The translations under genes and the position numbers were made by a program. Of a DNA stretch of 64,000 nucleotides, positions 902 to 35,293 are shown piece after piece. The notes below the pieces were generated by a model. It made no database searches. It saw nothing but the letters and a program-made list of their open reading frames with translations, and was not told the origin of the DNA. The DNA is taken from assembly GCA_035315885.1 (NCBI GenBank), contig DATFXM010000030.1, positions 38,619 to 102,618 on the forward strand, written 5' to 3'. Source of the stretch: Blastocatellia bacterium. GTDB lineage: Bacteria > Acidobacteriota > Blastocatellia > UBA7656. The first letter of the stretch is position 1, and each line of letters begins with the position of its first letter.

Positions 902-1918
902 CTACACATAGAGCTGGGCTGTCTTATCCAGCACCATCACCAGAAAGAGTAAAGGGAGATAAATTACCGTTGCATGGAGCAGTTCTTTTGCGGAAACCGT
1001 TGTTCGAAGCGATGCGGCACGATGGACCGCTATGAGAAGTCCCACCCCCAGCAGGGAAGCCGCCAACACGTAAACGCTTCCCGCCATTCCCATCACCGCC
1101 GGGAAGAGACTCAATACGATCATCGCGGCTGACATTATCCAGACGCGACGAAAAGCAACGACGCCATCGCTGTCGTCCTGCGGAATCATCAACATTCGCG
1201 CGCGCGCGTAGTCGTCGCGGTACATCCAGCCGATTGCGAGAAAGTGTGGAAACTGCCAGAAGAAAAGGATGGCGTAGAGTATCCAGGCGCCAGGCGTAAG
1301 ATCGCCGCGCACAGCAGTCCATCCCATGAGAATGGGGGCGGCTCCTGGAAAAGCACCGACCAGCGTGCAGAGATCGGTCCGGCGCTTGAGCGGCGTGTAG
1401 ATCAGCAGGTAGGCGAGCAGTGCCGCGAGCCCCACGATGCCGGTCAGCAGGTTGCAGCTCACAGCCAGATAGATTGTTCCGGCGACTGACAGAACGATAC
1501 CAAAACGGAGAACCGCCTGCGGTGTGAGGCGTCCGGCGGGCAACGGCCGATTAGCCGTGCGGCGCATCTTACCGTCATACGCGCGCTCGGCGTAGTGATT
1601 GAGCGCCGCGGTTCCTCCAGCGACAAGGGCAGTCCCTAACAGCGCGTTGAAAAGGATCCTCACATCGATCGATGGAGAAGCCAACAAGCAGCCGGCGCCA
1701 GTCACAATGAGAACCAACAGCAAGACTTCGGGCTTGGTGAGGCTGACGAAATCCATCAGCCGGGCAGGCAGGGGGAGACGTGCAGCGTCAAGCCTGTTGG
1801 TTTGGGTCCCGAGCCTCTGGCCATCAAGCCTCACCAAGCCCGAATGATCATTCCTTTCGTCGGTGACGCTATATCTCTCAATTCTGTTTGTGTCTGGCAT
1901 CATAACCACGCTTTCCAC
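902..1918 (-). CDS. ctaB: Protoheme IX farnesyltransferase (heme O synthase), UbiA prenyltransferase family
   Basis: 338-aa polytopic membrane protein with the UbiA-family Asp-rich region (...YYAERAYDGKMRRTANRPLPAGRL...). Located in the heme-copper oxidase operon. Confidence 0.8.
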   Translation of the reverse strand: MESVVMMPDTNRIERYSVTDERNDHSGLVRLDGQRLGTQTNRLDAARLPLPARLMDFVSLTKPEVLLLVLIVTGAGCLLASPSIDVRILFNALLGTALVAGGTAALNHYAERAYDGKMRRTANRPLPAGRLTPQAVLRFGIVLSVAGTIYLAVSCNLLTGIVGLAALLAYLLIYTPLKRRTDLCTLVGAFPGAAPILMGWTAVRGDLTPGAWILYAILFFWQFPHFLAIGWMYRDDYARARMLMIPQDDSDGVVAFRRVWIMSAAMIVLSLFPAVMGMAGSVYVLAASLLGVGLLIAVHRAASLRTTVSAKELLHATVIYLPLLFLVMVLDKTAQLYV

Positions 1919-1953
1919 CTTCGTTCGCCATACAAGGCGACGTGACTTTGGTC

Positions 1954-3468
1954 TTACGGCTCGGAGGAGCGTGCGGATTGCGAGGACTGCTTCTCGACCC
2001 GCCCAGGCGTCCCCGGTGTAGTCGCATCACGCGCGGGAGCTTCATTCGGTCCGTGGAGGGTTTTCATGAACTCGACCAGAGCGGCCACCTCCGCCGGGCT
2101 CAAGTTCTTGCCGTACGCCGGCATGTTGCCGCCGCCCTGGATCACTTGTCTGATTAGCTGATCGCCGGTCAGCCGGGTCGCGACGCCATCAAGCGCGGGC
2201 CCGCGCAGCCCGCCGCTGCCGTCGAGGCTATGACAGTTACGGCACTGCTTGTTCTGCAGCACGAGCGCGCCTTGCGCTTCGAGCGGTGTGCGCCCCATAA
2301 CATATTTCACAGGCGTCTGGTCAGCGCTCCATGACGCCATGTGTGGCGACCATGGCGAATAGGTGCCCAGGTAATTCAGCGTACCGACACTCAAGAAGAT
2401 GAGCAGTACGGCGAGCACCGCCACGGGTCTGCGGCGGGCGCTCTTTTCTCCGGTTCCGGAGATGAAGGGGAGCGTAAAGAGCACCCCTAACAGGATCACT
2501 GGCACGGTGAGAATCAGAGTGGTTTCGAGATAGTCGGGCAACAGGGCCAGCACCGCGTATAGCCAGAGAAAGAAGAAATCAGGCTTCGGTATGGTGTTTA
2601 TCTGCGTGGGATCGGGAACGCCGTGCGGTCCTTCGGGTCCGAAGTAGAGCGCGCAGCCAACGATGCCAAGCATGACCACCCCGCTGAAGATGAGGTCTTT
2701 GCTGATCGCCTTCGGAACAAAAGGTACACCGTCTTTGTGCAGTAAATCTTCATACTCCTGTTCATATGTTGCTTTCACTACCGCTTTGCCGGGGACGGGG
2801 TACTCGTTTATTCCTTTTGTGAGAACCAGCCTCAAGTGCAGGCTTACGAGCGCGATGATAGTGCCCGGAATGATAAAGACGTGCAGCGTAAAGAAGCGCG
2901 ACAGAGTTTCGCCTGCAATGATCGGGCCGGCCAGCACAAAATGAACCAGATCCGGCCCGATGACTGGAACTCGTCCCATCATCGCCGCGCCGATGCCAAG
3001 TCCCCAGTAAGCGTCCTGATCAAAGCGCAGGACTTGTCCGGTGAAAGCCATGCCCAATGTACAAAGCAGCAGCACGACGCCGGTGATCCAGGTCATCTCG
3101 CGTGGATACTTGAAGGCGCCAAACAGAAAGACCTGCGCCATGTGCAAGATCATGATCGCGACCATGAAATTCGAACCCCAGTTGTGCATTGCGCGGAGGA
3201 GCCAGCCAAGCTGCTGGTGATAGTTCAGGTATTCGAGACTGGTATAAGCCTCGCTGGCGGAGGGGACGTAAACAAAAGCGAGGCAGGTGCCAGTGACAAT
3301 TTGAATGATGAAACAGAGGAGCGTGCCACTGCCTAAGACATAAAACCAACTTTCGGCATTTCGAGGCACCTGGTGCTTGGCGGTCGAAGCATAAAGCTTG
3401 CTGACATGCACCCGGTCTTCAATCCATAACGCTATCTTTCTCAGCATACAAACTCCATCCAGATTCAA
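1954..3468 (-). CDS. Cytochrome bc complex cytochrome b subunit with a C-terminal mono-haem cytochrome c domain
   Basis: 504 aa. N-terminal cytochrome b/b6 core with His ligands in TM helices (HNWGSNFMVAIMILHMAQ). C-terminal CRNCH haem c motif (...NKQCRNCHSLDGSGG...MPAYG...). Confidence 0.8.
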   Translation of the reverse strand: MNLDGVCMLRKIALWIEDRVHVSKLYASTAKHQVPRNAESWFYVLGSGTLLCFIIQIVTGTCLAFVYVPSASEAYTSLEYLNYHQQLGWLLRAMHNWGSNFMVAIMILHMAQVFLFGAFKYPREMTWITGVVLLLCTLGMAFTGQVLRFDQDAYWGLGIGAAMMGRVPVIGPDLVHFVLAGPIIAGETLSRFFTLHVFIIPGTIIALVSLHLRLVLTKGINEYPVPGKAVVKATYEQEYEDLLHKDGVPFVPKAISKDLIFSGVVMLGIVGCALYFGPEGPHGVPDPTQINTIPKPDFFFLWLYAVLALLPDYLETTLILTVPVILLGVLFTLPFISGTGEKSARRRPVAVLAVLLIFLSVGTLNYLGTYSPWSPHMASWSADQTPVKYVMGRTPLEAQGALVLQNKQCRNCHSLDGSGGLRGPALDGVATRLTGDQLIRQVIQGGGNMPAYGKNLSPAEVAALVEFMKTLHGPNEAPARDATTPGTPGRVEKQSSQSARSSEP

Positions 3469-3488
3469 TCTCGCCTTCGCTACCTCGC

Positions 3489-4022
3489 TTACACCGGCTG
3501 CGAGAGGGTCGGAAGCTGGCCGCCCTTAACGAAAAGCTGGCCGTCCTCGACTTTGAAGTCATACTCAAACAATCCGCGCGGCGGCGGTCCGGACGCATGC
3601 GATCCGTCTTCATAGAAGGCGCCGCCATGACACGGGCACATAAACAGGTGCGACTCTTGAAACCAGCGAACGGGGCAGCCGAGGTGCGTGCAGTTGATTG
3701 CGAAGACTTGAAATCTCTCTCCTTCGATTCGGCGCACCCAGCAAGGGATATCGCCCGTCGGCCCATCCCACGGTCGCGTGAAAGGATTGCGATACGTCGC
3801 CAGCCTCGTTTCACCGGCTGGAAACTTTTCCAACGCGCCGAGCGAGACCCACGAATTGGATGGTCCTTTGCGCCGGAAGCTCGAAAAGACAAAACCGACG
3901 ACCGGAATGCCTATGAACGTCGCTGCCACCACGTTGAGAGCGGCGCCAAGCTTCAACAGAAAACTCCGGCGAGAAGATCCGGCATTTGGTTGCGGACAAC
4001 ATTGCTGCTCATTAACAGGCAT
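3489..4022 (-). CDS. Rieske [2Fe-2S] iron-sulfur subunit of the bc complex
   Basis: Rieske boxes CTHLGC and CPCHGGAF are present. N-terminal TM anchor. Confidence 0.8.
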   Translation of the reverse strand: MPVNEQQCCPQPNAGSSRRSFLLKLGAALNVVAATFIGIPVVGFVFSSFRRKGPSNSWVSLGALEKFPAGETRLATYRNPFTRPWDGPTGDIPCWVRRIEGERFQVFAINCTHLGCPVRWFQESHLFMCPCHGGAFYEDGSHASGPPPRGLFEYDFKVEDGQLFVKGGQLPTLSQPV

Positions 4023-4044
4023 CTTGTGTTTCTCCTATCGTTCG

Positions 4045-4824
4045 TCAATCAACGGGCGATGTCGTCCTGTTTTCAGAGGCCGATCGATTGGCGGCTTGCG
4101 CCCGTTCGCGCGCGAGTGGGTTGGGCCGTTGCGCGGCCAGCCAGGCCACCACATCGGAGACCTCCTGCGCTGACATAGGGTGGCCGGGTGTGTTCTGGCG
4201 GCAGTCGGGTTTGCCCATATCCTGTCTGCCGACTATGACGGTGGTCCGCAACGATTGATCGCTGACCAGGGCCAGATAATTTGGATCGACGATTGACCCA
4301 AGCGCTTTGCCGCCCCGCCCATCCGCGCCATGACACTGACTGCAGTACACGCTGTAGACTGTTGCGCCTCGCTGAGGGTCACCAGCCCCGGTCCCCTTTG
4401 CACTTGCTTCTTGCTCGCTGTACGGCGGCAGCGTCGCGTCTTTGAATTCTTCGGGGTGTCCCCACCGCGATCTCATTTGCTCGGCGAGCAAATCGACCTG
4501 CGCGTCGGTGAGCTGGCCTCCGAACTTCTGCGCGAAGGGAGGCATGCTCGTAGAGGGCACCCCCTGGCGGATGACTTTGCTCAAGTTTTCCTGGCTGATC
4601 AGATTCAAGTAGAGCGGGTCATTCAACGGCCGTGCGGCACCCAACCGTCCGTCAGAACCGTGGCACCCCGCGCAATTCTGAGCGTAAAGCTGATCAAAGC
4701 TGGCGACTTCAGAAGGAGCTACCCACCGATCCGCTTGCGATGGTTTACCGGGCAAACGATTGCAGCCTGAGGCCCAGCAGAAGGCAAGAAGGAAGATAGC
4801 TCCGGTGTAGCGTTTTGCAGTCAT
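4045..4824 (-). CDS. Dihaem cytochrome c, predicted lipoprotein
   Basis: Two CxxCH motifs (CAGCHGSDG, CSQCHGADG). N-terminal signal with lipobox (...FCWASGC). Confidence 0.75.
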   Translation of the reverse strand: MTAKRYTGAIFLLAFCWASGCNRLPGKPSQADRWVAPSEVASFDQLYAQNCAGCHGSDGRLGAARPLNDPLYLNLISQENLSKVIRQGVPSTSMPPFAQKFGGQLTDAQVDLLAEQMRSRWGHPEEFKDATLPPYSEQEASAKGTGAGDPQRGATVYSVYCSQCHGADGRGGKALGSIVDPNYLALVSDQSLRTTVIVGRQDMGKPDCRQNTPGHPMSAQEVSDVVAWLAAQRPNPLARERAQAANRSASENRTTSPVD

Positions 4825-5678
4825 TACTCTTCGTCCTTTTCCTTAAGCAGTCCAGGAGTCTCGAGCCCCGCTCTCGCGGCAAGCGGCCAGGTCTGCATCG
4901 TCTCTACTGTCCTGGTGTGGTGGACCACGTAGCCGGTGGTCATGCCGAAGACGATCTGCGACGCGACGAACCACAGCCAGTCAATGCGGGAGTCCAGCAG
5001 TGGATTGACTACCCTGAGCGTCGCCCACACCAACGCCGTCCACATCAGCGGGGCCAGCAGGCTTCCCCAGAAGGCCGCACGTCTCGACGGCAACATTGGC
5101 AGCAACACCGCAAACAGAAGCCCGACAAGCATTGAGATCACGCCGTGGGAAAACAGTGCGACGATGAAAGCCACTCCGTGGAAGGCTTCCAATTGGGCCA
5201 CATCCGCTCGAGCCAGTGAAGGGATTACAGCAGCCGCAAGCAGATTGATCGGATACCAGATGCTGCCGTGAGAAATGAGGCCATATGTAGAGGCAACGAT
5301 CGCCATCGCAACTCCACCGACGACGGCTCCCTTCAATCCGGACGAATAGGGGTGAATCTCAGCCGGGATGCGCACCCGATGACTGGCCTGGCCCGCGGTG
5401 AGGTGAGAGACCGTGCGAGCAGAAGCTTTGACTGCCTGGGCGCGCTCGATTACCGCCCGCACGGTTGCGACCTCGTGATGCTCGACTGGCAAGTTTTCGC
5501 GGAACCAGCCGACTGCGCCGCGAAGAGCCAGGACAATCCCCACTACGCTTATGACGAGGTGCGTGACCAGGCCCGCCGCAAGTAACGTGATGCCCAAAGC
5601 AGTGATCATCGGCCAGGCCGTGGGCGCCGGTACTTCGATCACCTCGTGAAGCGAACTTCTTTCTTCTTCTGATCGCAT
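4824..5678 (-). CDS. Hypothetical polytopic (~8 TM) membrane protein inside the bc-caa3 operon. Start reassigned to the internal ATG at 5678.
   Basis: ORF 4824..5966 has an N-terminal ~95 aa that overlaps the upstream ORF and looks non-coding. The internal ATG (MRSEEERSS...) is preceded by GAGGA 7 nt upstream. Downstream protein is rich in TM helices. Confidence 0.5.
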   Translation of the reverse strand: MRSEEERSSLHEVIEVPAPTAWPMITALGITLLAAGLVTHLVISVVGIVLALRGAVGWFRENLPVEHHEVATVRAVIERAQAVKASARTVSHLTAGQASHRVRIPAEIHPYSSGLKGAVVGGVAMAIVASTYGLISHGSIWYPINLLAAAVIPSLARADVAQLEAFHGVAFIVALFSHGVISMLVGLLFAVLLPMLPSRRAAFWGSLLAPLMWTALVWATLRVVNPLLDSRIDWLWFVASQIVFGMTTGYVVHHTRTVETMQTWPLAARAGLETPGLLKEKDEE

Positions 5679-6238
5679 AAGAGTCCTCGATTTTTCGCGT
5701 GCCTGCGATCCGCAGTCTCCAGGTGCATGCTCAAGTCTGCTTGTAGAATCGTGTCCTTGGCGTGTATCAGACCGCACTGGTGGTACAGCCAGTCGAAGTC
5801 GGCCCAATACTGTGGCCCGGCATTCTCCGGCTTCTGCATTTCTCGGATGTAAGGTTCCAGTATTTGATAGCAACGCCGAATGCGTGGCTCCCAGCCCACG
5901 ATCAACGGCTCTATCGGAACAAGACCCGATTGCAGGACCGTTCCCGCGGTTGAGAAGCTTGAACACAACTTGGAAACCGCCAGCTGCTCATCCTCGGTCC
6001 ACTCAGTGAAGTGCTTCTTATGCAACGTTGTATACACGAGGTTAAGTGCGGCGCGTATATCATCCGATTCGATGAAGCTAAGGAGCGAGAGAATGTGCTG
6101 CACCACGGTGCTGCGACGCATTTCCTGCATCTGCGCGTTCATTACCAGGAGCTGCCGGTAGTTGATGAAAAGCGTGATCAGCAGACCTGCGGACCCGATC
6201 ATTTGGGTAACGATTTGTATTTTCAGAAGGGCGTTCAT
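5639..6238 (-). CDS. Hypothetical protein with a single N-terminal TM helix and a soluble domain. Inserted between oxidase subunit III and the bc genes.
   Basis: Start taken at internal ATG 6238 (MNALLKIQIVTQMIGSAGLLITLF...) to avoid a 70-nt overlap with coxIII. Local GC is lower than its neighbours. No recognisable motif. Confidence 0.4.
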   Translation of the reverse strand: MNALLKIQIVTQMIGSAGLLITLFINYRQLLVMNAQMQEMRRSTVVQHILSLLSFIESDDIRAALNLVYTTLHKKHFTEWTEDEQLAVSKLCSSFSTAGTVLQSGLVPIEPLIVGWEPRIRRCYQILEPYIREMQKPENAGPQYWADFDWLYHQCGLIHAKDTILQADLSMHLETADRRHAKNRGLLCDQKKKEVRFTR

Positions 6239-6276
6239 CGTTCTATCGCGTTGCTCAAGTCTCGTTTTGCCTCGCT

Positions 6277-6876
6277 TCAGCGGCCAATGACATAGACGAC
6301 GCTGAACACAACCACCCAAACTACGTCCACAAAATGCCAGTACCACGAAATCATCTGGATGCGCTCACCGTCTGCCGGCCTGATGCTTTTCCTGAGACTC
6401 AGGACCAGGACAAGGGTGAGAAGTATGAGTCCGACCACAACGTGGCTGGCGTGTAAGCCCACCAGCGAATAGAAAGTTGTGCCGAACAGGTTGGTGCTGA
6501 TCGTCAGGTGCTGGTTAACGATGAGCCGCTTCCACTCGGCAGCGGTTGACCCTAGAAAAATTGCTCCAAGCAGGACTGTTAATGCCCACCAGGCGCGGAA
6601 GCTCCCAATGCTTTCTCGGTGGAAGGCGCGCTCCGCCAACAGGATGGTCACGCTGCTCGAGAGCAGGCAGATTGTTGAGACAATCGGAGTCTCGAGCACG
6701 TCTGCCGGGTATGGGCCGATCAAGCTTTTGCCGACGTAAAACAGATACGCCACGACGAAGATCGTGAACATCGACGACTCGGTCACAAACAGACAGGTTA
6801 GGGCCACCTTGCGGCGCGACGGCAACGTCCATGCGCCGGATTCGTCAGGTAAGATCAAAGCATCAGCATTGGTCAT
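6277..6876 (-). CDS. ctaE: Cytochrome c oxidase subunit III
   Basis: 199 aa, 5 TM. C-terminal signature WHFVDVVWVVVFSVVYVIGR is typical of heme-copper oxidase subunit III. Confidence 0.8.
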   Translation of the reverse strand: MTNADALILPDESGAWTLPSRRKVALTCLFVTESSMFTIFVVAYLFYVGKSLIGPYPADVLETPIVSTICLLSSSVTILLAERAFHRESIGSFRAWWALTVLLGAIFLGSTAAEWKRLIVNQHLTISTNLFGTTFYSLVGLHASHVVVGLILLTLVLVLSLRKSIRPADGERIQMISWYWHFVDVVWVVVFSVVYVIGR

Positions 6877-6892
6877 TGGCTGGTTCTCCAGT

Positions 6893-8584
6893 TCACTCGT
6901 ACTTCCAGTCCGGGTCTTCAGGGTGTTTCAAGTCCCAGAGCGGCCGAGCACTACGTACTAGCGGCACTGTCTCGAAGTTGTACTCAGGTGGCGGAGAAGT
7001 CGTGGCCCATTCGAGCGTCCACGCATCCCACGGGTCATCCCCCGCCTGTTCTCCTTTGCGCAGAGACCTGAGAATATTCCAGGCCAGGCAAGCGATACCG
7101 GCGATTTGGAAGAGAACCCCGATTGAAGTGATCAGATTCAGTATCTCCCACCCGCGTCCAGGATCGTAGGTGTAGATGCGCCTGGGCATGCCCAGCAGGC
7201 CAGGTATGTGCATCGTGTCAAAAGTGAGATGGAAACCGATGAAGAAGAGGGCAACATGCCAGAGGCCGAGCGTCTTGTTCAACATTCGCCCGGTAGCCTT
7301 CGGGAACCAGTAGTAGATCCCACCAAAGATGCAAAACAACATACCGCCGATCAGCACATAGTGAAAATGCGCTACGACGAAATAGGAGTCGGTCAAATGC
7401 CAATCGAAGGGAACTGCCCCCAGCATGATTCCCGTCAGCCCTGCAATCAGGAATTGAAAGAGGAAGGCGATGCAACAGAGCATCGGCAGCTCAAAGCGGA
7501 TCTTGCCGCCGTACATCGTGCCAAGCCAGTTGAATATCTTGATCCCGGTGGGCACGCTAACGAGCATTGTGGAGACGGCAAAAAACGTATTACCAACAGA
7601 GGTCATGCCGACCGTGAACATGTGATGAGCCCAGACACTCATACTGACGAAGGCGATCATCGTCGTTGCCCCCACCATGGCCGGGTAGCCGAAGATCGGC
7701 TTGCGCGAAAAGACTGGGATGATTTCAGAGACGCAAGCGAATCCGGGAATCATGAGAACGTAGACCTCAGGGTGGCCGAAGATCCAAAAGAAGTGCTGCC
7801 ACAAGACCGCCGATCCTCCCGCCTGGGTATTGAAAAAGGTCGCGCCGAAGAAACGATCGAACAGCAACATGATCTGTGCGGCAGTAAGAGGCGGGATTAC
7901 TATAAACATCATCGCTGAGACGACCACCATCATCCATACGAACAGCGGCATGCGCATTAACGTCATGCCTTTGGTGCGCATGCTGAACGCGGTGGCGACT
8001 ACATTAACCCCAGAGGACAGGCTGCCAACGCCGCTCAGAAGCAGACTGAGCGTCCAGTAATCGGTGCTGTTCCCGCGCGAAAACGCCCGGCCGGTCAGTG
8101 GCGCGTAAGCGAACCAGCCTACGTCGGGAGCCGAACCATGGCCCGACAATCCTGGCGCGCCAAGGTAACTGAAGAACAGCAGTCCAGCGCCGAAGAGAAA
8201 CATCCAGAAGCCAAATGCGTTCAGCCGGGGAAACGCCATGTCGCGCGCACCGATCATCAGCGGCACAAGATAGTTCGCGAGACCCGCAACAATCGGCATC
8301 CCGACAAAGAAGACCATCGTGGTGCCATGCACGGTGAACAGGCGGTTAAACGTGTCGGGCGCGACAATGTTGTTGTTGGGGAACGCCAACTGTAAGCGGA
8401 TCACAGAAGCCATCAACCCGGCGACGACCAGGAAGACCAAGGCGCTGGCGATATACATAAGGCCAAGCTTCTTGTGATCGACGGTGACGACCAACGCATG
8501 CAGCCGTGTAACAATCGACGTCGATGGCAACGGGCCGGTCAGCGGGAATTCACTATTGGTGGCGACCATCAAGTCTTCTCCCAT
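6893..8584 (-). CDS. ctaD: Cytochrome c oxidase subunit I
   Basis: 563 aa, 12 TM. Contains the conserved His ligands and the signatures GHPEVYVLMIPGF and WAHHMF. Confidence 0.9.
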   Translation of the reverse strand: MGEDLMVATNSEFPLTGPLPSTSIVTRLHALVVTVDHKKLGLMYIASALVFLVVAGLMASVIRLQLAFPNNNIVAPDTFNRLFTVHGTTMVFFVGMPIVAGLANYLVPLMIGARDMAFPRLNAFGFWMFLFGAGLLFFSYLGAPGLSGHGSAPDVGWFAYAPLTGRAFSRGNSTDYWTLSLLLSGVGSLSSGVNVVATAFSMRTKGMTLMRMPLFVWMMVVVSAMMFIVIPPLTAAQIMLLFDRFFGATFFNTQAGGSAVLWQHFFWIFGHPEVYVLMIPGFACVSEIIPVFSRKPIFGYPAMVGATTMIAFVSMSVWAHHMFTVGMTSVGNTFFAVSTMLVSVPTGIKIFNWLGTMYGGKIRFELPMLCCIAFLFQFLIAGLTGIMLGAVPFDWHLTDSYFVVAHFHYVLIGGMLFCIFGGIYYWFPKATGRMLNKTLGLWHVALFFIGFHLTFDTMHIPGLLGMPRRIYTYDPGRGWEILNLITSIGVLFQIAGIACLAWNILRSLRKGEQAGDDPWDAWTLEWATTSPPPEYNFETVPLVRSARPLWDLKHPEDPDWKYE

Positions 8585-8586
8585 TT

Positions 8587-9651
8587 CTAAGTAAGGGTGA
8601 GAAGGTAGCGGACGAGTTGGTCTACCTCTTCGTCCGTGAGCTGCATATCAGGCATGTAGCAGCCTTCTTTTAGCCTCTGTGGATTGCGCACCCATGCACG
8701 CAGCTTTTCAGGCGTGTTCAACACCACGCCAGACCCAAGCGTTTCGCGGTTCATTAAATGAGTCAGATCGGGCCCGAACTTGCCGTTGGCTTCCGTGCCA
8801 TTGATCGTGTGACAGTTGACGCAAGAGGTGGAGAAGAAGAGGTCACGCCCGACCTTCACCTGGACGTCGTTGGCCGCTTGGCGTTTTTGCGCGGCCACCC
8901 ACTGTTCGAACTCGCCCGGTGGATGCACGATGACCCGGATCAGCATCCGGGCATGCTGTGTTCCGCAATACTCGGCGCAATTGCCCAGGTAAGTTCCCGG
9001 TGTCACCGGCTCTATCCACATGAGATTGTCACGGTTTGGAATGACGTCGGTTTTGCCGGCTAGCTGAGGAATCCAAAAGCTGTGCGCCACGTCGGCCGAT
9101 TCCAGCTTCATGAATGTCGGACGCGGCTGAGCCGCATCGCTAACCGGGACATGCAGTTCGTTCGCAGTCACTATGCCTAGTTCGGGATACCGGATCTCCC
9201 ACCACCACTGATGACCGACTATGGTGACTTGGACTGCTTTAGGCGGAGGAGGCGCGTCTTGAACTTCAGCTATGGTGCGTGCGGTCACCAGGGTGAGCAC
9301 AAAGACAATGATGAGCGGCAAGACCGTCCAGGCGAGCTCGATTTGGTTACTGCCATAGACCTGAGGTGGTTCGTGCGTGTCGTCGCCCTTGCGATGACGG
9401 AATCGTGCCACCGTATAAATGAGCAGGGCCATAACCGTGACAAAGATCACCCCGCAGATGGCTAGAACGAGCATCGTGTAGTTGAAGATCACTCTGGCCG
9501 GTGGGCCATCCGGTTTGAAGATGTTGGTCACGCTGTTTGCGCCATCGGCAAATGCAGGTACGACCATCAAGAAGGAGATGAAACATAAGATCAACGACCT
9601 GGTACACATCGCTCGCCACGAACGAATGGCAAATTGGATCTGCTGCTTCAC
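8587..9651 (-). CDS. ctaC: Cytochrome c oxidase subunit II, caa3-type (CuA domain fused to a C-terminal cytochrome c)
   Basis: CuA motif H...CAEYCGTQHARM and C-terminal CVNCH haem-binding motif. Signal peptide plus 2 TM. Confidence 0.85.
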   Translation of the reverse strand: MKQQIQFAIRSWRAMCTRSLILCFISFLMVVPAFADGANSVTNIFKPDGPPARVIFNYTMLVLAICGVIFVTVMALLIYTVARFRHRKGDDTHEPPQVYGSNQIELAWTVLPLIIVFVLTLVTARTIAEVQDAPPPPKAVQVTIVGHQWWWEIRYPELGIVTANELHVPVSDAAQPRPTFMKLESADVAHSFWIPQLAGKTDVIPNRDNLMWIEPVTPGTYLGNCAEYCGTQHARMLIRVIVHPPGEFEQWVAAQKRQAANDVQVKVGRDLFFSTSCVNCHTINGTEANGKFGPDLTHLMNRETLGSGVVLNTPEKLRAWVRNPQRLKEGCYMPDMQLTDEEVDQLVRYLLTLT

Positions 9652-9774
9652 TCGGAGCGCTCCTTTCCGGCTTGCTTCCGATTAATCGGACATCGACGAA
9701 CAGGTCGCGTCCTGCGGCCTTCGAACGAAGCTGAGGGCTCGCCGATGCTTCCCCTGGTCACACCACGTGCAAAC

Positions 9775-9807
9775 CTACTGCAAGGCTACTGCAACGCTAC
9801 TGCCACG
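9775..9807. repeat. Three tandem 11-nt direct repeats (CTACTGCAAGG / CTACTGCAACG / CTACTGCCACG) in the cox promoter region
   Basis: Read directly from the sequence. Lies ~125-155 nt upstream of the ctaC start codon on the opposite strand. Confidence 0.35.
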
Positions 9808-10039: not shown

Positions 10040-12091
10040 TCACCGCATCGACGCCGAATCCCGAATCACGGCCACAGGCGGATTTCTTGGAAGCTGCTCA
10101 TTCGTCTTTAGAATGACGTCAAGGTGGGTCACCACTCCCAGCAACTTACGACTCGAATCGACGACTGACAGCATTTCGATCTCTTCTCGCAACATTATTA
10201 TCGCGGCGTCTACAATGCTCTGGTCTGGTGAAACAACCGGCGGGTCTTTACGCATGAAATCACTGATCGGTGTCTCGAGCGATGCGAGCTGACGCAAAGC
10301 GCTAAACAGCTCGGCGGCCCCGCAGTAGCCTTTTAATTGTCCTCCCTCATCAACTACTGGTGAGCATGGTTTGCCGTGTTCGAAGCGACTGATTGCATCC
10401 GCCAGGGGACTATCAGGCGATAGAGGCTCAGCGGGGCTCGTCATTACTTCCGAGACTTTGATAGTTGCAATTGTGGGATTGATCCGAACCCTTGCCATCA
10501 AGGCCTCGTAGCCCTTGAGTGATTCCGGAGATTTTTCCAGGCCCCTACGTAGCCTGGCATCGAACTGCGCCAGGCGCCTGAAGTCATCCCGCCGAAGGGT
10601 GATCAACTCGAGCGGCGTCTCTGCTTTTACAGAAATCAGATGCGGCCCTTGCCCCTCCGGGGTCAACGACTCGCCGCCGAAGTGGTCGCCTGCCTTGAGC
10701 ACGGTTATTGGATTCGAGGATTCATCCGTGTATACCCCGGCAGTTCCTGATTGAATGACAAAGAGGCTTCCTGGCCGATCTCCTTTATGAAAAATAAAAT
10801 CTCCGGCTGCATATCGAGCCTGCCCTGTCGCGCCGGTGCGCGATAGCGGCAGCTGAACAATGTTTGGAGGAAACAGCATCTTCCACGTCCAGTCACCCAC
10901 GACTTCAAGCTTGCGAGCAAGGCTGGGGAGCTTGCTCAAGTAGATCCCGCGCCATAACATCCAGGCGATAAATCCAGAGATGCGTACTCCGAGAATCTGT
11001 GCGACCGCTTTGCGGTTGCCCAGCGAAGCGAGCATGCCCAGGACCCGAAAAGAAAACGGTTTCGTCGGCTGACCCTTGAATGTCCGCGCCAGGTTTGCGG
11101 CGAGTTGCTTGGCTTGCCTCATGGCAAACTGCGCTGTCGGTGCGCTCGGCTTCTTATCGAACGCGTTCTGGATAAGTGCGCAATCTCCGACTGCCCACAC
11201 GTTGCTCTTGCCCTTAATACTCATGTCGGGATTGGTAACGAGGCGACCTCGATCGAGCGGAAGGTCCAGTTTCTGAATCAGAGGATTTGGCGACGTCCCG
11301 ACCGTTGAAACGACCGTCGCGGCCTCGAACAATTCACCTGAGGTCAATCGCACGCTCCGGGCGGTAATTTCCTCCGCGCTGGAATTGAGACGAACGTCAA
11401 CTCCGGCTTTGCGCAACTTGTCGGCCGCAAACTTTGAGAGAGACGCTGCATTAAGCTCGGGGATCAGAAGATCCCCTCGCTGCAACAGAATGATGCGCGG
11501 GTGCTCGCCTTTGAGGGTTGGGTAAAAGCGGGCCGTTTGTTCTGCTACTTCGGCGATCTCTCCGGCTACCTCTACGCCGCTGAAGCCGCCGCCAATTATC
11601 ACGATTGTGAGCAGCCGCTTTCGACGCAATGGATCGGTTTCCACCGCAGCCTCTTCAAGTCGCATGATGAGATCGTTGCCAAGGTAGATCGCATCTCCCA
11701 GCGTTTTGATTGGGTAAGCATACGCCGCGAGGCCCGGGATCAGATTCATGTTGACTGTCGCGCCGCAAGCCAGAACCAGATGATCATAAGTCAGCGTTGC
11801 GCGTTCGCCGCCTGCGCCGACATAGCTCACGAAATTCTCTTGCAAGTCGATGCCGGTAACTTGCGCCGTCAACCACGTCGTGCGCCGAACCATCTGGCGG
11901 CCCACTACAACTACGTGCAGCGGAGAGATCGCCCGCCCAACCGCTTCCGCGAGCATCGGGGTAAAGACGAAGTGATTCTCGCTGCTTATGAGCACAATCT
12001 CGATATCGGAAGACAGTTGCCGCTCAAGATGCTGCGCGACTGTCACGCCCCCGAACCCGCCGCCGATGATTACTACTCGTCTGGAACTCAT
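10040..12091 (-). CDS. ndh: Type II NADH:quinone oxidoreductase (NDH-2) fused to a C-terminal cyclic-nucleotide-binding domain and a CBS pair
   Basis: N-terminus has two Rossmann motifs (VVIIGGGFGGV and IVIIGGGFSGVEVAGE) plus WAVGDCA. After ~residue 430 come a CAP_ED-like segment (FIFHKGDRPGSLFVIQSGTAGVY...GGESL) and two CBS motifs. Confidence 0.8.
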   Translation of the reverse strand: MSSRRVVIIGGGFGGVTVAQHLERQLSSDIEIVLISSENHFVFTPMLAEAVGRAISPLHVVVVGRQMVRRTTWLTAQVTGIDLQENFVSYVGAGGERATLTYDHLVLACGATVNMNLIPGLAAYAYPIKTLGDAIYLGNDLIMRLEEAAVETDPLRRKRLLTIVIIGGGFSGVEVAGEIAEVAEQTARFYPTLKGEHPRIILLQRGDLLIPELNAASLSKFAADKLRKAGVDVRLNSSAEEITARSVRLTSGELFEAATVVSTVGTSPNPLIQKLDLPLDRGRLVTNPDMSIKGKSNVWAVGDCALIQNAFDKKPSAPTAQFAMRQAKQLAANLARTFKGQPTKPFSFRVLGMLASLGNRKAVAQILGVRISGFIAWMLWRGIYLSKLPSLARKLEVVGDWTWKMLFPPNIVQLPLSRTGATGQARYAAGDFIFHKGDRPGSLFVIQSGTAGVYTDESSNPITVLKAGDHFGGESLTPEGQGPHLISVKAETPLELITLRRDDFRRLAQFDARLRRGLEKSPESLKGYEALMARVRINPTIATIKVSEVMTSPAEPLSPDSPLADAISRFEHGKPCSPVVDEGGQLKGYCGAAELFSALRQLASLETPISDFMRKDPPVVSPDQSIVDAAIIMLREEIEMLSVVDSSRKLLGVVTHLDVILKTNEQLPRNPPVAVIRDSASMR

Positions 12092-12157: not shown

Positions 12158-13810
12158 CTACGCACCCGGCGGCTTAGTCGATTGCGAATCGAACAAGATC
12201 TTCGTCCGTTTCATAAACGCGATGAGCACAATAAGCCCCAACGCCACCCACGCCATGAACATGAAGGCGTCCATGTACGCGAGCGTGAATGCCTGCTGTC
12301 TTACCTGTCCGCTGAGCAGTGCGACCGAACGCTTTTGCGCCTCATCCAATCCTGAGGAGTTGGAGCTGACACCGCCGGTGAGCCAACGCAGACGCTCGTC
12401 GGTCAGCCAATCCCCGACCTCAACGTGCAGTCCGATCAAATTCGAGTGAAACTTCTCGCGTACCGCGATGAAATGCCCCATGAGGGAGCTGCCGGCTTCG
12501 CCTCCGAGGATCCTGACGCTGTGAACGAAGCATGAAAAGGTAAGGACATTAAACGGTCGCGAGAGGGCTCCCACCTCCTGCAGGTACTGGACCATCCCCC
12601 CGATTAGGGAGACGAAGGTGAATGAAAGGCCAACCGCGATGACAAGTTGAGAAGTCCAGAAGTTATCCCCCGCCCACGCGCTGGTAAGCTGTGCGTTGAG
12701 CAGGCAAGCCACCGCGACAGTCGCGAATCCAGTGGCCAGCATCAGCCTTTGATCAAGTCGGCGCATCAACCACGCCGCAACGAGACCGATAACAACCTGC
12801 GGGGCGGCTACCCACAGCAACACGCGACCGGTCTCGAGCGGACGATATCCTTGTATCGCACCCAGATATCCCGGAACCAGCAATGCAATGGCGAGTATCA
12901 CGAACCGCAGGCCAAACAACCCGGTATAGAGAATGAGGATGTTTCTCTGTCCGAGGAACGGAATATTCACAAGTGGGTTTGGCGAGATCCACCGCCGAAT
13001 TATCGCGGCGAGGATTAGGAACGCAGCGCTGACCAGCATCGCGACAATTACGCCCGAGCCCAACCAGTCCAATCGTTCTCCCTGATCGAGCACGCCATAC
13101 AACAGGCTCAAGGCGACACTGGCCCACAGGAAGCCTGCCCAGCTTATGTGTGGCTTCGGCCCGGTTCGCGCCGGAGGGTTCGGTATTGCCTTGTATATGC
13201 ACAGGATCATCAACATCGACGCCAGCGGGCCAATCCAGAAGATCCAGCGCCACGATAGATGCTCGTTGAAAAACGCTTGCAGCGGTACGGCGAGCGAAGT
13301 CCCCGCTAGAATGTCCATCGAATAGACACCAATACCGTAAATTGTGAAACGCAGAGGTAGCTGGCGCAGCGCAAAAGTCATCGTCAACGGGTAGAACGTG
13401 CCGGACAATAAACCCGCGATCACCTGCAGAGCCAACAACACTGCGAGGTTCGGTGAGAACGGCGCCAGGAACGAAACCACCGCATAGATGGGCGCACAAA
13501 ACAGCAGCACCCGTCTGACTCCCAACAATCCGCCGAGGTAGACCGAGAACGGTCCCATGAACATCAGCCCCATGCTGTAAGTGGTCGGAATCCAGGACGC
13601 CTCGTCCACGCCGAGCCCTAATGCCCCGCGGAGATCAGGCAGCCCGACCGACAGCAGCCGCCCAAACAGCGTGGTGATTCCTGCGCCGAGGAACACGCCC
13701 AGTGTGCCAAGGTAAGGATTCGGCTTGACCTCAAGCCTCCCCTGGAACGGCCGCCATATCGGGAATGAGAGTCCCCGGGGCGCAACTTGGGTTGTTGCGG
13801 TCGAGCTCAC
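12158..13810 (-). CDS. emrB: MFS transporter, DHA2 (EmrB/QacA) family, 14 TM
   Basis: 550 aa, 14 predicted TM helices, EmrB-like N-terminus. Lies downstream of HlyD and TolC genes. Confidence 0.8.
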   Translation of the reverse strand: MSSTATTQVAPRGLSFPIWRPFQGRLEVKPNPYLGTLGVFLGAGITTLFGRLLSVGLPDLRGALGLGVDEASWIPTTYSMGLMFMGPFSVYLGGLLGVRRVLLFCAPIYAVVSFLAPFSPNLAVLLALQVIAGLLSGTFYPLTMTFALRQLPLRFTIYGIGVYSMDILAGTSLAVPLQAFFNEHLSWRWIFWIGPLASMLMILCIYKAIPNPPARTGPKPHISWAGFLWASVALSLLYGVLDQGERLDWLGSGVIVAMLVSAAFLILAAIIRRWISPNPLVNIPFLGQRNILILYTGLFGLRFVILAIALLVPGYLGAIQGYRPLETGRVLLWVAAPQVVIGLVAAWLMRRLDQRLMLATGFATVAVACLLNAQLTSAWAGDNFWTSQLVIAVGLSFTFVSLIGGMVQYLQEVGALSRPFNVLTFSCFVHSVRILGGEAGSSLMGHFIAVREKFHSNLIGLHVEVGDWLTDERLRWLTGGVSSNSSGLDEAQKRSVALLSGQVRQQAFTLAYMDAFMFMAWVALGLIVLIAFMKRTKILFDSQSTKPPGA

Positions 13811-15225
13811 TGACTGTTCCTCGCGGTTTTGGTGTCGCTATGCTTGCCGGATGCGTTGATCTCGACGATCACCGACATTCCCGATCTCAGTCGCTTTGCC
13901 GATTCCTGGTCGTGGTCAATGAGAATCTTGACTGGTATGCGCTGCACGATCTTGGTGAAGTTGCCGGACGCGTTGTCCGGAGGGAGCAGGGCAAATTGCG
14001 ACCCGCTGGCAGGGGAGATCTGTTCGACATGGCCGTTCAGCCTGAGGCCGGGAAATGTATCAACGGTGATCACCGCCGAATCGCCCTTGGTTATGTTGGT
14101 GAGTTGGGTCTCCTTATAGTTAGCCTGAACCCATACATCGCTCTCCACGAGCGAGATCACCTGTGTGCCCGGGCTGACGAGTTGCCCCACGCGGACTTTG
14201 CGTTCTCCTACGACACCGTCTGTCGGAGCGAGAATTCGCGTGTATTCCAGGTTCGTGTTGGCTACCTTGACCGCCTCTTCCTTCGCCCTCAAGTCAGCCT
14301 TGAGTTGTAGTTCCTGCGCGTCGAGCACTCCTCGCTGTCGTTGCTGAGCCTGAAGTTCCGACTCGCGACTGGCCAGTGAGGCGCGCGCCTGCTGCGCCTG
14401 CGCCTTTCTGAGCGCAAGCAGCGCCTTGCTCTTTGACAGGTCGGCTAGTCGGCTTTCCAACGTCGCGGCGTATCGCTGTTCGTCGGCGGTGACCTGTTCG
14501 AATTTCTGCTTAGTCGCAGAGGCAGAGTCCAACAACGCTTCTTGTCGTTTCTTTTCCAACTGCGTTCGCACGACGTCGGCCCTGGTGCCGTCCACGCTGG
14601 CCTCAGCATTCGATATCTCGGCTTTCGCGGCCTCGACGCTGGCGTCTGTCTGAGCGATGTCGGCTTTGGCAGCCTCAACACCGGCTTCAGCCTGTGCGAT
14701 TTTTGACTCCTGAAGCGCCTTTTGTTTTGCGTTGTTCACCAGGGTGGCATTGGCCGCTTGCACTGCAGCTTCTGACTGCTCGACCTGCGCACGGTAATCC
14801 TCGTCCTTGATCTGTACGAGCAGGTCGCCGGCCTTCACGGTTTGATAATCTTCGACCGCAACTTGCGTCACCGTACCGGAGACTCTCGTGCTCAGAGGGG
14901 TGATGTCAGCTCGCAGGTAGGCGTCATCCGTTTTCTGGCTACCTGTCCTGCCAACCCATGAATTCCAGCTTGAAGTGATGAGAATAAGGAGCGCCACCGC
15001 GATCAATATCACCAGGACTGGAGTGAACCTGCGCAAAGTGCCACGCGGCTTCTTGACCTGTTCGACGTGCGAATCGGAACTCGCCGCGGCCGCTTTCTCA
15101 ACCGGTTGACCAGGGGTAGTAGCTGGTTTGGATTGATCCGGGTGCTGATCGGAGATCGCTCCCGATGGCTTGGCGTCTTGTGTCGTGTTTGGCGTGGGCA
15201 TTCGGTTCACTCCTTCTTGTGTCAC
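13807..15225 (-). CDS. emrA: HlyD/EmrA-family membrane fusion protein with a long coiled coil
   Basis: N-terminal TM (VLVILIAVALLILI), extended Ala/Gln/Glu-rich coiled coil, and a C-terminal beta-barrel/lipoyl-like domain. A 4-nt overlap with emrB indicates an operon. Confidence 0.8.
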   Translation of the reverse strand: MTQEGVNRMPTPNTTQDAKPSGAISDQHPDQSKPATTPGQPVEKAAAASSDSHVEQVKKPRGTLRRFTPVLVILIAVALLILITSSWNSWVGRTGSQKTDDAYLRADITPLSTRVSGTVTQVAVEDYQTVKAGDLLVQIKDEDYRAQVEQSEAAVQAANATLVNNAKQKALQESKIAQAEAGVEAAKADIAQTDASVEAAKAEISNAEASVDGTRADVVRTQLEKKRQEALLDSASATKQKFEQVTADEQRYAATLESRLADLSKSKALLALRKAQAQQARASLASRESELQAQQRQRGVLDAQELQLKADLRAKEEAVKVANTNLEYTRILAPTDGVVGERKVRVGQLVSPGTQVISLVESDVWVQANYKETQLTNITKGDSAVITVDTFPGLRLNGHVEQISPASGSQFALLPPDNASGNFTKIVQRIPVKILIDHDQESAKRLRSGMSVIVEINASGKHSDTKTARNSQ

Positions 15226-16565
15226 TTTTCTTCGCCGATCGACTTTTCAAATTCGGCTTTTGCAGTCCAGTAACCGAGAAGCGCGTCTTGGTATTTGTGA
15301 TTGGCTTCGGCAAGCGAGGCCTGTGACTGCAGGACATCGGACAACAGGGCTGCGGTCACCTTGTACTTGTTGGCGTTGATGCGCAGTACTTCACGAGCAG
15401 TTTCCTGTCCGAGTTGCGCAACGACCAGGGCCTGGCGGGTCTGTTGGAATTTGCGGAACTTATCGCCCACATCGATCAGGACCAGGCTCTCGGCTTCGTG
15501 TAAGCCAGTCTTGGCCTGCTCGATGAGTTTCGATTTTTCCGCCATTTGATCTTTCTTTCTTCCCCAATCGAAGATCTCCCATTTGACGAGCACACCGATG
15601 TTCGCAAAGTTCTGCGGGACGCCGCTGTCGAAATTTCGCAGTGTCACATATCTGAATCCGAGGGTAACATCGGGAATGTATTCGGACTTTATGATCCGGC
15701 GATCTACTTCCGCTTCCTTTATCCTCAGTCGCGCCTCTCTCACTTCGGGACGCTGATCCAGCGCGCGCGCGCGGGCCGAGGCGAGTTCAAGGTTATAGTC
15801 CGTCTGGGTGGGGACGGCGCTTACACTGAAATTCGTTTCCACGTCGCGGCCAAGAAGGTTGTTGAGCTGTTCTTTTTCGGTCGCGAGTTGGTTCGTAAGG
15901 TTGAGGGCATCATACTCGGCCTTCGCCAGGCGTGTTTCCACCTCGAGGCGATCGGATTTCAAGACAACCTGCTGTGCAACGTAGTCTCCGGTCACACGAT
16001 CCAGCTCGCGGTAAAGCCTTATGGCTTCAAGCACGCTTTCGAGTGCGCTCTGAGATTGGAGGATCGAGTAGTAGGTTCGCTTGACGCGATCAACTATGGA
16101 TTGTCTGACGTGGCGAAGTTTTTCATTGGTTACGTCGCGTGCCAGCTTGCCGTGCTTAATGGTCAGTCCGATGCGGTACTGCTGCGACAAGGGCTGAGCT
16201 ATCAGCGAGGTGAAGACGGTTGTCGGTCGCCGCGGAACAGTGAGGGGAGCAAACGAGTCGACGCCGGGGAGAAGGTCGGTTGTGACAGATTTCAGGTTGA
16301 TCTCATGCTGAACCATTTGGATTGAGGTGAGCGAGAACAAATTCATTGACGGCAATCGCATCGTGCGAATTGCTGCTAGATTGTCTTCGGCCTTGCCGAC
16401 TTCGAGTTCGGCGATCTTCACCAAATGGCTGTCGCTGAGGGCCAGCGAGATTGCCTGGTCTAGCGTAAGCACTTCGCCGGGAGCCGATCTGTCCCTTTGG
16501 CCGAAGGCACTAATTGGGGTCAGTAGCAATATGAACACTGCAAAGTTGGTCTTTGTTCGTCGCAT
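15222..16565 (-). CDS. TolC-family outer membrane efflux protein
   Basis: Signal peptide, then two repeats of the OEP/TolC helical-barrel pattern. Overlaps emrA by 4 nt. Confidence 0.75.
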   Translation of the reverse strand: MRRTKTNFAVFILLLTPISAFGQRDRSAPGEVLTLDQAISLALSDSHLVKIAELEVGKAEDNLAAIRTMRLPSMNLFSLTSIQMVQHEINLKSVTTDLLPGVDSFAPLTVPRRPTTVFTSLIAQPLSQQYRIGLTIKHGKLARDVTNEKLRHVRQSIVDRVKRTYYSILQSQSALESVLEAIRLYRELDRVTGDYVAQQVVLKSDRLEVETRLAKAEYDALNLTNQLATEKEQLNNLLGRDVETNFSVSAVPTQTDYNLELASARARALDQRPEVREARLRIKEAEVDRRIIKSEYIPDVTLGFRYVTLRNFDSGVPQNFANIGVLVKWEIFDWGRKKDQMAEKSKLIEQAKTGLHEAESLVLIDVGDKFRKFQQTRQALVVAQLGQETAREVLRINANKYKVTAALLSDVLQSQASLAEANHKYQDALLGYWTAKAEFEKSIGEEK

Positions 16566-35272: not shown

Positions 35273-35293
35273 ATCAAGTAGTGACATGAGAAT

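Follow-up and report, generated by a model that had tools for sequence, protein, structure and literature searches.

What purpose is served when a respiratory dehydrogenase carries what looks like a sensor on its C-terminal end? The question is raised by a 64,000-nt stretch of contig DATFXM010000030.1 from a Blastocatellia bacterium (assembly GCA_035315885.1; the whole stretch is referred to below as the window), which encodes a 683-amino-acid (aa) protein that begins as a type II NADH dehydrogenase (NDH-2) and continues into a cyclic nucleotide-binding (CNB) domain and a pair of CBS domains, or Bateman module. A first-pass annotation, made from the sequence alone, had proposed that respiratory electron input is controlled directly by cyclic AMP (cAMP) or cyclic GMP (cGMP) and/or adenine nucleotides. 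The analysis below suggests that the fusion is old and has been maintained, that regulation of some kind by the appended module is somewhat favored (a probability of roughly 0.55), and that cAMP or cGMP are probably not what this particular copy responds to.

NDH-2 enzymes are monotopic; their C-terminal helices anchor them to the membrane and shape the quinone site. They set the share of NADH that is oxidized without proton pumping, and with it respiratory efficiency, redox balance and output of reactive oxygen species, and they are drug targets in pathogens. The known control of bacterial NDH-2 is mainly transcriptional.

Gene, domain order and spread of the fusion

The gene (Table 1) has an ATG start, 683 codons, no internal stops, and a stop codon at 10040-10042; its start agrees with those of its homologues, whose N-terminus is MSKRRVIIIGGGFGG. 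The order of Pfam domains, all scoring above their curated cut-offs, is Pyr_redox_2 (PF07992; E 5e-45, 154 bits against a cut-off of 26), NDH2_C (PF22366; 40.2 bits against 27.7), cNMP_binding (PF00027; E 3e-16, 59.5 bits against 27.5), and CBS (PF00571; two stretches over ~545-665, 73.8 bits against 24). The first-pass description of an NDH-2 running past its membrane anchor into a CAP-type CNB domain and a Bateman module therefore holds, with all three of the families it named detected and NDH2_C in addition. Its remark on the unusual length is also borne out: the plain NDH-2s used for comparison run to 416-460 aa, leaving ~275 extra residues here. There is no NCBIfam equivalog for the whole protein, the best matches being generic flavoprotein models far below their cut-offs.

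The fusion could in principle have arisen as an artefact, by a frameshift in sequencing or assembly that merged adjacent genes, as the first-pass annotation allowed. This is excluded by the continuous reading frame, by an identical protein encoded on an independent short contig, and by the same architecture in almost every one of the 120 best-matching homologous clusters; its presence in more than 100 clusters and at least seven phyla and a conserved inter-domain linker (below) speak against an artefact as well. Nothing was found in its support, since a homologue that lacks most of the module (P0117, below) shows merely that a short form exists elsewhere, and its probability can be taken as negligible.

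By sequence and fold, residues 1-405 are an NDH-2. Residues 4-404 align end to end with solved NDH-2s (mycobacterial 9mqy, E 7e-48; Caldalkalibacillus 4nwz, 1e-40; yeast Ndi1, 1e-32). The top matches of a PDB sequence search are all NDH-2 (E 7e-48 to 9e-23), followed by FSP1/AIF and CoA-disulfide reductases at 1e-13 or weaker. An AlphaFold model, built from a 30-sequence alignment (mean per-residue confidence, pLDDT, 69.6; predicted template-modelling score, pTM, 0.44), gave the same ranking in Foldseek, with NDH-2 structures first; TM-scores to these are ~0.8 relative to the target and no more than 0.54 relative to the query. No structure in the PDB as searched by Foldseek spans the C-terminal ~275 residues together with the core. 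What is shared with solved NDH-2s (E 7e-48 to 6e-28) thus comprises the two Rossmann folds, both GxGxxG motifs, the amphipathic NDH2_C anchor, for which the model has helices at residues 374-387 and 391-406, and the quinone-site helix, whereas no solved NDH-2 has the CNB domain and CBS pair.

The fusion is not confined to this genome. The best 120 homologous clusters are 53-79% identical to it, and nearly all are 670-700 aa with PF07992, PF22366, PF00027, and PF00571. At the 90% identity level there are more than 100 fusion clusters, in Acidobacteriota and mostly in Blastocatellia; those with names come from Blastocatellia, Acidobacteriota and Candidatus Angelobacter metagenome-assembled genomes, and their annotations go no further than "FAD-dependent oxidoreductase" or "NADH dehydrogenase." A cross-phylum scan with one genome per species and a generic GGGFSGV pattern, whose listed matches lie outside the close acidobacterial genomes, served for the cross-phylum survey that the first-pass annotation had suggested. 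Among the matches listed, the four-domain protein (33-38% identity) occurs in Verrucomicrobiota (Oleiharenicola, Opitutaceae), Nitrospira, a deltaproteobacterium, Candidatus Obscuribacterales, Planctomycetota, and Lysobacterales (Gammaproteobacteria), whereas Lacunisphaera, Thalassococcus, and Amaricoccus macauensis DSM 101730 have a three-domain form that lacks CBS. The fusion is thereby known from at least seven bacterial phyla.

HMMER was also run exhaustively against 1.84 billion representatives with the module alone (residues 406-683), and found it as a contiguous CNB-CBS unit at ~405-680 of ~670-706-aa proteins in ~10 clusters at 50% identity. About 10 more matches are N-terminally truncated NDH-2 fusions, for ~20 clusters altogether at this level. 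The matches of ~450 aa were considered as possible fusions to other partners and rejected, being such truncated copies. A few ~300-aa cNMP-CBS proteins (P0123, P0182) are possibly stand-alone and possibly fragments.

In a neighbor-joining tree of the catalytic core (104 sequences, 401 columns, calculated without support values), all proteins bearing CNB or CNB plus CBS fall into one NDH-2 sub-clade, and some 45 plain NDH-2s from Bacteroidota, Actinomycetota, Thaumarchaeota, and others fall outside it. The sub-clade also contains plain enzymes (a gamma/beta-proteobacterial group) and partial forms. One protein, from locus L008, lacks CBS though its sisters at L001 and L003 have it. The short form P0117 (locus L085, 6001-7413, GCA_038040455.1; also L086) is 470 aa long and 78% identical to the core of the window protein; its reading frame closes within the CNB region, 29 bp before a convergent gene, and it was found on four contigs. 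The simplest reading of this tree is an old fusion with repeated loss. With more than 100 clusters at 90% identity, ~20 at 50%, at least seven phyla and a single sub-clade, the fusion is, on sequence evidence, ancient and maintained.

Constraint within the clade is unevenly distributed. Relative to the window protein, mean identity is 75% in the core, 79% in NDH2_C, 72% in the linker between anchor and CNB domain, 61% in the CNB barrel, 43% in the alphaB/alphaC helices that follow it, and 54% and 48% in the first and second CBS motifs (CBS1 and CBS2); it falls to 12% in the C-terminal tail. No segment is more conserved than NDH2_C, whose identity across phyla is 53%. Since the CNB and CBS domains are at 61, 54, and 48% where the tail is at 12%, they are under purifying selection, though weaker than that on the core. 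The 14-residue linker is disordered in the model, yet it is unexpectedly conserved, at a level with the catalytic core, which makes it a candidate transduction element.

Cofactor, quinone and ligand sites

In the catalytic part, the FAD motif (G10-GGFGG-15) and the NAD(P)H motif (G167-GGFSG-172) do not vary across the family. For the quinone site, the NDH-2 motif, which we take to be AQxAxQ on the helix after the second Rossmann fold, reads A320-Q-F-A-M-R-Q326 here and begins at the end of the Rossmann core segment. Where the C. thermarum enzyme has AQIAIQ, the second Gln of the fusion protein is shifted one residue by an Arg, and both R325 and Q326 are near-invariant in the clade.

A further difference from the solved enzymes lies in the nucleotide fold. 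Residues Q204-R205 close its beta-2 strand, where most NDH-2s have Glu or Asp; Q204 (codon at window positions 11480-11482) aligns with E198 of 4nwz (C. thermarum) and with an Asp of 9mqy, residues that disfavor NADPH. In a residue survey, position 204 was Gln or His in every CBS-bearing fusion and in the nearest plain relatives, and mostly Glu in outgroup NDH-2s and in alphaproteobacterial CNB-only forms. The next residue is Arg or His in Acidobacteriota, and Ser followed by Arg or Gly in other phyla. An acidic residue at the end of beta-2 has been credited with the exclusion of NADPH in NDH-2, and a Glu to Gln change at that position moved the Agrobacterium tumefaciens enzyme toward NADPH (PMC5220320, the latter as cited within it). 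Because this NADH-specificity residue is replaced by Gln or His, the fusion sub-clade may accept NADPH or both cofactors; the acidic residue is typical of NDH-2 rather than obligatory, and its replacement bears on substrate preference, not on family membership.

The CNB domain has the expected fold, with eight model strands within residues 422-499 and helices within 501-543, at moderate pLDDT. Its PDB sequence matches are the CNB domains of PKG, PKA-R, and HCN. In this fold the ligand-responsive elements are an N-terminal helix and the alphaB/alphaC hinge and lid, and an Arg of the phosphate-binding cassette neutralizes the cyclic phosphate of the bound nucleotide. The model helices of the alphaB/alphaC region (501-510, 512-518, 520-537, and 539-543) lead directly into the CBS pair.

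The cassette itself is degenerate. Compared with the canonical F-G-E-x-A-L-x(5)-R-[ST]-A-x-V-x-A, Glu is replaced by Gly473, Arg by His484, and R-[ST]-A by H-L-I, and there is an insertion that occupies three aligned columns in the family alignment and appears as a two-residue gap in the PDB alignment. In HMMER alignments to cGMP-binding PKG and cAMP-binding PKA-RI, FGG faces FGE, and no basic residue is found in the cassette before the VKA strand. Both of the contacts typical of functional cyclic nucleotide monophosphate (cNMP) binders, through Glu and Arg, are thus missing from the window protein. Nor is it exceptional in its clade: among the 107 members that could be parsed, the Arg position holds His in 77, Gln in 11, Tyr in 10, Arg in six and Ser in three, while at the Glu position 50 members have Glu, 34 have Ala and 23 have some other residue. 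The six that keep Arg (P0100, P0101, P0114, P0115, P0119, P0120) form an Angelobacter-like branch. In homologues from other phyla, FGE...R[STA]A is mostly intact and the insertion missing, with PF00027 scores of 75-85 bits; a cyclic-nucleotide response is plausible there, and probable in those relatives that have the canonical pocket.

Because the contacts for a cyclic phosphate are gone from the pocket, the CNB ligand of the window protein, if there is one, is probably neither cAMP nor cGMP, and the part of the first-pass proposal that invoked them finds no support for this copy. That all 107 parsed members have a hydrogen-bond donor at the Arg position suggests that the pocket is still used. 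A possible parallel is the PKA of kinetoplastids, in which replacement of the cassette Arg by polar residues goes along with a change of ligand from cAMP to purine nucleosides and restoring the Arg brought back the cyclic-nucleotide response (PMC10959531). The signature Glu of those proteins, replacing Ala202 of RI-alpha, is not present here, where the corresponding residue is Ser475 with Glu474 one residue earlier, and the CNB ligand cannot be read off by homology.

The CBS pair is the most confidently modelled part of the protein, with pLDDT 80-91 over ~545-665. CBS domains bind ribose-phosphate through a motif of the form G-h-h-[ST]-x-x-[DN]. CBS2 has a canonical version (G652-V-V-T-H-L-D658), and the same position in CBS1 reads G588-Y-C-G-A-A-E594, a non-canonical sequence that, in the clade, has invariant G588 and G591 and near-invariant Y589, C590 (a conserved cysteine), and E594. 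In most other phyla (loci L001-L016) it is CBS1, not CBS2, that has the canonical motif, as G-h-h-T-x-[ST]-D. The PDB matches of the pair (MJ1225, MJ0922, CBSX1/2, MJ0100, IMPDH, OpuCA) are generic adenosyl-ligand modules. Because CBS2 keeps its canonical G-h-h-T-x-x-D, sensing of an adenosyl ligand, and with it control by adenine nucleotides, is plausible, although sequence alone cannot name the ligand.

Gene neighborhood

From 17663 down to 902 every gene is on the minus strand. In order of transcription these are a sigma-54 activator, the OEP, HlyD-type adaptor and MFS genes of an efflux pump, the fusion gene, COX2-cyt c, COX1, COX3, two unassigned open reading frames (ORFs), a di-haem cytochrome c, Rieske, cytochrome b-cyt c, and haem O synthase (Table 1). 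No terminator-like sites were found on this strand in either the 66-bp gap before the fusion gene or the 388-bp gap after it, and an Rfam scan of the whole window returned no family at threshold. The reported position beside a bc-caa3 cluster was confirmed by Pfam, with the cluster on the same strand and downstream.

Table 1. Features of the fusion gene and its neighbors (window coordinates)
Feature	Residues	Position	Strand	Basis
Fusion gene, 683-aa NDH-2-CNB-CBS protein	1-683	10040..12091	-	ORF list, Pfam, homologues of same architecture
Catalytic two-Rossmann flavoprotein core	5-327	11111..12079	-	PF07992, PDB alignments (9mqy, 4nwz), residue survey
NDH2_C, two predicted amphipathic membrane-anchor helices	351-407	10871..11041	-	PF22366, model helices
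Anchor-to-sensor linker, PPNIVQLPLSRTGA	408-421	10829..10870	-	In-clade conservation, pLDDT <50
CAP-type CNB fold, eight-strand beta-barrel	426-509	10565..10816	-	PF00027, model strands, PDB matches
Degenerate phosphate-binding cassette, GDHFGGESLTPEGQGPHLISVKA	468-490	10622..10690	-	HMMER/PDB alignments, clade survey
alphaB/alphaC helices, hinge and lid of CNB fold	501-543	10463..10591	-	Model helices
CBS motif 1	545-603	10283..10459	-	Pfam, invariant columns, pLDDT 80-90
CBS motif 2	609-665	10097..10267	-	Pfam best stretch 609-660, PDB matches
caa3-type oxidase, bc-type complex and haem O synthase cluster		902..9651	-	Pfam; downstream of fusion gene, 388-bp gap
COX2-cyt c		8587-9651	-	Pfam
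COX1		6893-8584	-	Pfam
COX3		6277-6876	-	Pfam
Di-haem cyt c		4045-4824	-	Pfam
Rieske		3489-4022	-	Pfam
Cyt b-cyt c		1954-3468	-	Pfam
Haem O synthase		902-1918	-	Pfam
Tripartite efflux pump (OEP, HlyD-type adaptor, MFS)		12158..16565	-	Pfam; ends 66 bp before fusion gene

Eight acidobacterial contexts were compared, seven of full fusions and that of the short form P0117. A bc-caa3 cluster adjoins the fusion in three of the seven, in three arrangements: downstream in the window, nearby and divergent at P0083, and at P0116 with the fusion gene embedded in the operon, beginning 3 bp past the end of cytochrome b-c and followed by Caa3_CtaG. This repeated linkage supports a respiratory role. An efflux pump directly upstream is commoner, at five of the eight loci with P0117 included; it is of the MFS type in the window, at P0004 (39-bp gap) and at P0083, and of the RND type near P0027 and P0117. 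The P0017 and P0115 loci have neither pump nor bc-caa3 cluster. Synteny with the oxidase or pump genes across the whole family was considered and rejected. When 12 window neighbors were compared by tblastn with 19 loci (18 fusion-bearing plus P0117), the only matches were in the close relative L084 and were to the pump genes, and no homologues of the window neighbors were found within 8 kb at the 15 cross-phylum loci, so that such synteny is confined to the clade. Flanking genes in other phyla are varied; those found elsewhere include catalase, DoxX, aldo-keto reductase, and SDR genes.

The bc-caa3 genes look like a self-contained quinol-to-oxygen module, whose arrangement is kept in P0083 and P0116. 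Its cytochrome b extends into a C-terminal cytochrome c domain, a cytochrome c domain is also part of COX2, and the di-haem cytochrome c and Rieske protein belong to the same cluster. The two ORFs between COX3 and the di-haem cytochrome c (4824-5966 and 5639-6346, minus strand) overlap by 328 bp and have no significant Pfam match, with a sub-threshold DUF4760 in 5639-6346. The P0083 and P0116 relatives have a single 266-277-aa gene at this position, also without a Pfam match, and for this reason at least one of the two listed starts is probably over-extended. The position corresponds to a conserved subunit of the bc-caa3 cluster without a Pfam family. The divergent neighbors of P0116 (JGI 3300047160) are glucose-6-phosphate dehydrogenase, 6-phosphogluconate dehydrogenase, and a Glucosamine_iso-family gene; the two dehydrogenases are NADPH producers of the oxidative pentose-phosphate pathway, a single case that fits the hint of NADPH use.

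The 388-bp gap contains, at 9768-9805 on the minus strand, the sequence TGGCAGTAGCGTTGCAGTAGCCTTGCAGTAGGTTTGCA. In it a sigma-54-like -24/-12 element (TGGCAC-N5-TTGCW, with one mismatch) forms the first of three tandem 11-bp repeats, some 115-150 bp ahead of where COX2 starts. Sigma-54 activator genes are found in the window at 16569-17663 and 26739-27887. As the number of such patterns across the window is at chance level (32 against 31.3 expected), the element is only a lead. Farther away, on the plus strand (32174-38404 and 46773-49892), are three paralogous ~1035-aa sensor kinases with Reg_prop beta-propellers, Y_Y_Y, HisKA_3, and HATPase domains; two are in tandem, each of the three is followed by a LuxR-type response regulator, and a similar kinase pair is upstream of the fusion gene at the P0017 locus. 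A second MFS and HlyD-type adaptor efflux pair is encoded at 56739-59845 on the minus strand.

Regulation, its alternatives and significance

If the appended module does regulate the enzyme, the following sequence of events can be imagined. The CBS pair would bind an adenosyl ligand (AMP, ADP, or ATP, for example) and thereby report energy state; the CNB fold would take a second small molecule, or serve mainly as a mechanical relay. A ligand-driven shift of the CNB hinge and lid helices and of the linker would reposition the adjoining anchor helices, altering quinone access, membrane docking, or dimer geometry. As a result, non-proton-pumping electron input to the quinone pool would be tuned up or down post-translationally, to match the energy or redox state of the cell. 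The module is attached at a point where regulation could act, beside the highly conserved NDH2_C (79%) and through the conserved 14-residue linker (72%). Regulation as such has the probability given at the outset; much less confidence attaches to the identity of any specific ligand, and the direction of regulation and route of transduction are likewise inferred. A fuller version is a tentative possibility, rather less probable than regulation alone: that these are ancient, multi-phylum respiratory NAD(P)H:quinone oxidoreductases gated directly by two built-in sensors, the CNB domain responding to a second messenger and the Bateman module to adenylates or energy state, in which the Blastocatellia-type CNB pocket, with its Arg changed to His, Gln, or Tyr and its insertion, has been retuned from a cyclic nucleotide to another ligand, by analogy with the switch from cAMP to nucleosides in trypanosome PKA. 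On that version, they would be the first case in which a fused sensor controls, post-translationally and at the ligand level, how electrons enter a bacterial respiratory chain.

Several observations weigh against regulation of a respiratory enzyme by a fused sensor. Linkage to oxidase genes is missing at four of the seven fusion-bearing acidobacterial loci and at all 15 cross-phylum loci. No cyclase or other signalling partner is encoded in the 64-kb window, or among the ten flanking ORFs scanned at six cross-phylum loci. The module has been lost wholly or partly in P0117 and L008, and by this evidence is dispensable for catalysis. Finally, at a pTM of 0.44 the modelled geometry between domains is unreliable and the relay route speculative; given this score and the disordered linkers, nothing is concluded as to docking.

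The other explanations differ in which of these facts they make most of. That cAMP or cGMP binds the CNB domain of the window protein and switches its NADH:quinone activity directly finds some support in a CNB fold above the Pfam cut-off and in the canonical pockets of the homologues in Verrucomicrobiota, Nitrospira, Deltaproteobacteria, Obscuribacterales, and Planctomycetota, and the His, Gln, or Tyr at the Arg position could still form hydrogen bonds with an anionic group. However, the loss of Glu and of any Arg or Lys in the window cassette, its H-L-I and its insertion, the retention of Arg by so few of the clade, a PF00027 score of just 59.5 bits, and the missing cyclase gene make it distinctly unlikely, as does the loss of cAMP response that accompanies polar replacement of the Arg in kinetoplastid PKA (PMC10959531). 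At the other extreme, the C-terminal domains may now sense nothing and serve for dimerization or as a scaffold, for example in positioning the enzyme near bc-caa3 complexes. The degenerate cassette, the faster evolution of the module than of the core, and its loss in P0117 are all consistent with this, and both CNB and CBS domains commonly dimerize. Against it are the maintenance of the architecture across at least seven phyla and the retention of the CBS2 ribose motif, the invariant residues of CBS1, and a hydrogen-bond donor (His, Gln, Tyr, Arg, or Ser) at the Arg position; because all three are kept, the pockets appear to be still under selection, and a purely structural appendage seems improbable to about the same degree as direct cyclic-nucleotide control.

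Less improbable than either, though still unlikely, is that the enzyme acts chiefly as an NAD(P)H:quinone reductase in stress or detoxification, in partnership with an efflux pump and not as a main respiratory entry point, with a sensor that ties its activity to redox or energy stress. The pump genes upstream at most of the acidobacterial loci, which in the window are on the same strand with a gap of only 66 bp and no predicted terminator, speak for this; the replacement of the NADPH-excluding acidic residue (Q204-R205 here, H-S-[RG] in other phyla, with the Glu to Gln precedent in PMC5220320) and the catalase, DoxX, aldo-keto reductase, and SDR neighbors elsewhere point the same way. Yet the NDH2_C anchor and the quinone-site motif are the most conserved parts of the protein, as expected for a membrane enzyme of the quinone pool, the P0116 gene is inside a bc-caa3 operon, and pump adjacency is missing in other phyla and is by itself no proof of shared function.

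Ligand-dependent regulation of a quinone-pool enzyme would have partial counterparts among known proteins. In the mitochondria of plants and fungi, external NAD(P)H dehydrogenases (NDB/NDE) are regulated by Ca2+ through an EF-hand insertion, and some of them use NADPH and lack the acidic specificity residue. They resemble the fusion protein as NDH-2s controlled at the protein level by a ligand-binding element of their own, but theirs is an internal Ca2+ EF-hand in eukaryotic organelles, and it is not homologous to the C-terminal CNB domain and Bateman module of the bacterial protein. Non-canonical CNB proteins (kinetoplastid PKA-R, the CNB-homology domains of KCNH channels, and members of CRP/FNR with other ligands) share the CAP beta-barrel and alphaB/alphaC with loss of the cassette Arg, but their outputs are a kinase subunit, a channel, or a DNA-binding domain rather than a respiratory flavoenzyme. 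Bateman-regulated proteins (IMPDH, AMPK gamma, CBS, MgtE/CorC, OpuCA, CBSX1/2, MJ1225, MJ0100) likewise have a tandem CBS pair with its ribose motif on a catalytic or transport domain; among the matches retrieved, none is joined to a respiratory dehydrogenase and none has the pair straight after a CNB domain. Also comparable is the database class [quoted passage not shown] in which a flavoprotein with two dinucleotide-binding domains carries a CNB domain. This class is described as soluble, with a redox-active Cys pair, and has no NDH2_C anchor, quinone site, or CBS pair.

The domains of the fusion protein are individually well known, and hundreds of such sequences are already in databases with automatic domain calls. 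No publication on an NDH-2 with CNB or CBS domains was found among open-access papers and bioRxiv, although one could have appeared elsewhere, and no mention of the architecture was found in a 2025 preprint surveying the evolution of bacterial NDH-2.

If the proposed regulation is correct, electron input would be gated directly at the metabolite level, by sensors fused to the anchor and quinone-site helices. The family would provide a natural system for studying how CNB and Bateman modules regulate a monotopic membrane enzyme. The occurrence of canonical and degenerate cNMP pockets in orthologues of one enzyme offers a ready comparison for the evolution of CNB ligand specificity, and the Gln or His at the NADH-specificity position raises the prospect that NADPH may enter respiration through this sub-clade. 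The fusion family is worth following up, being widespread, conserved, and inexpensive to test.

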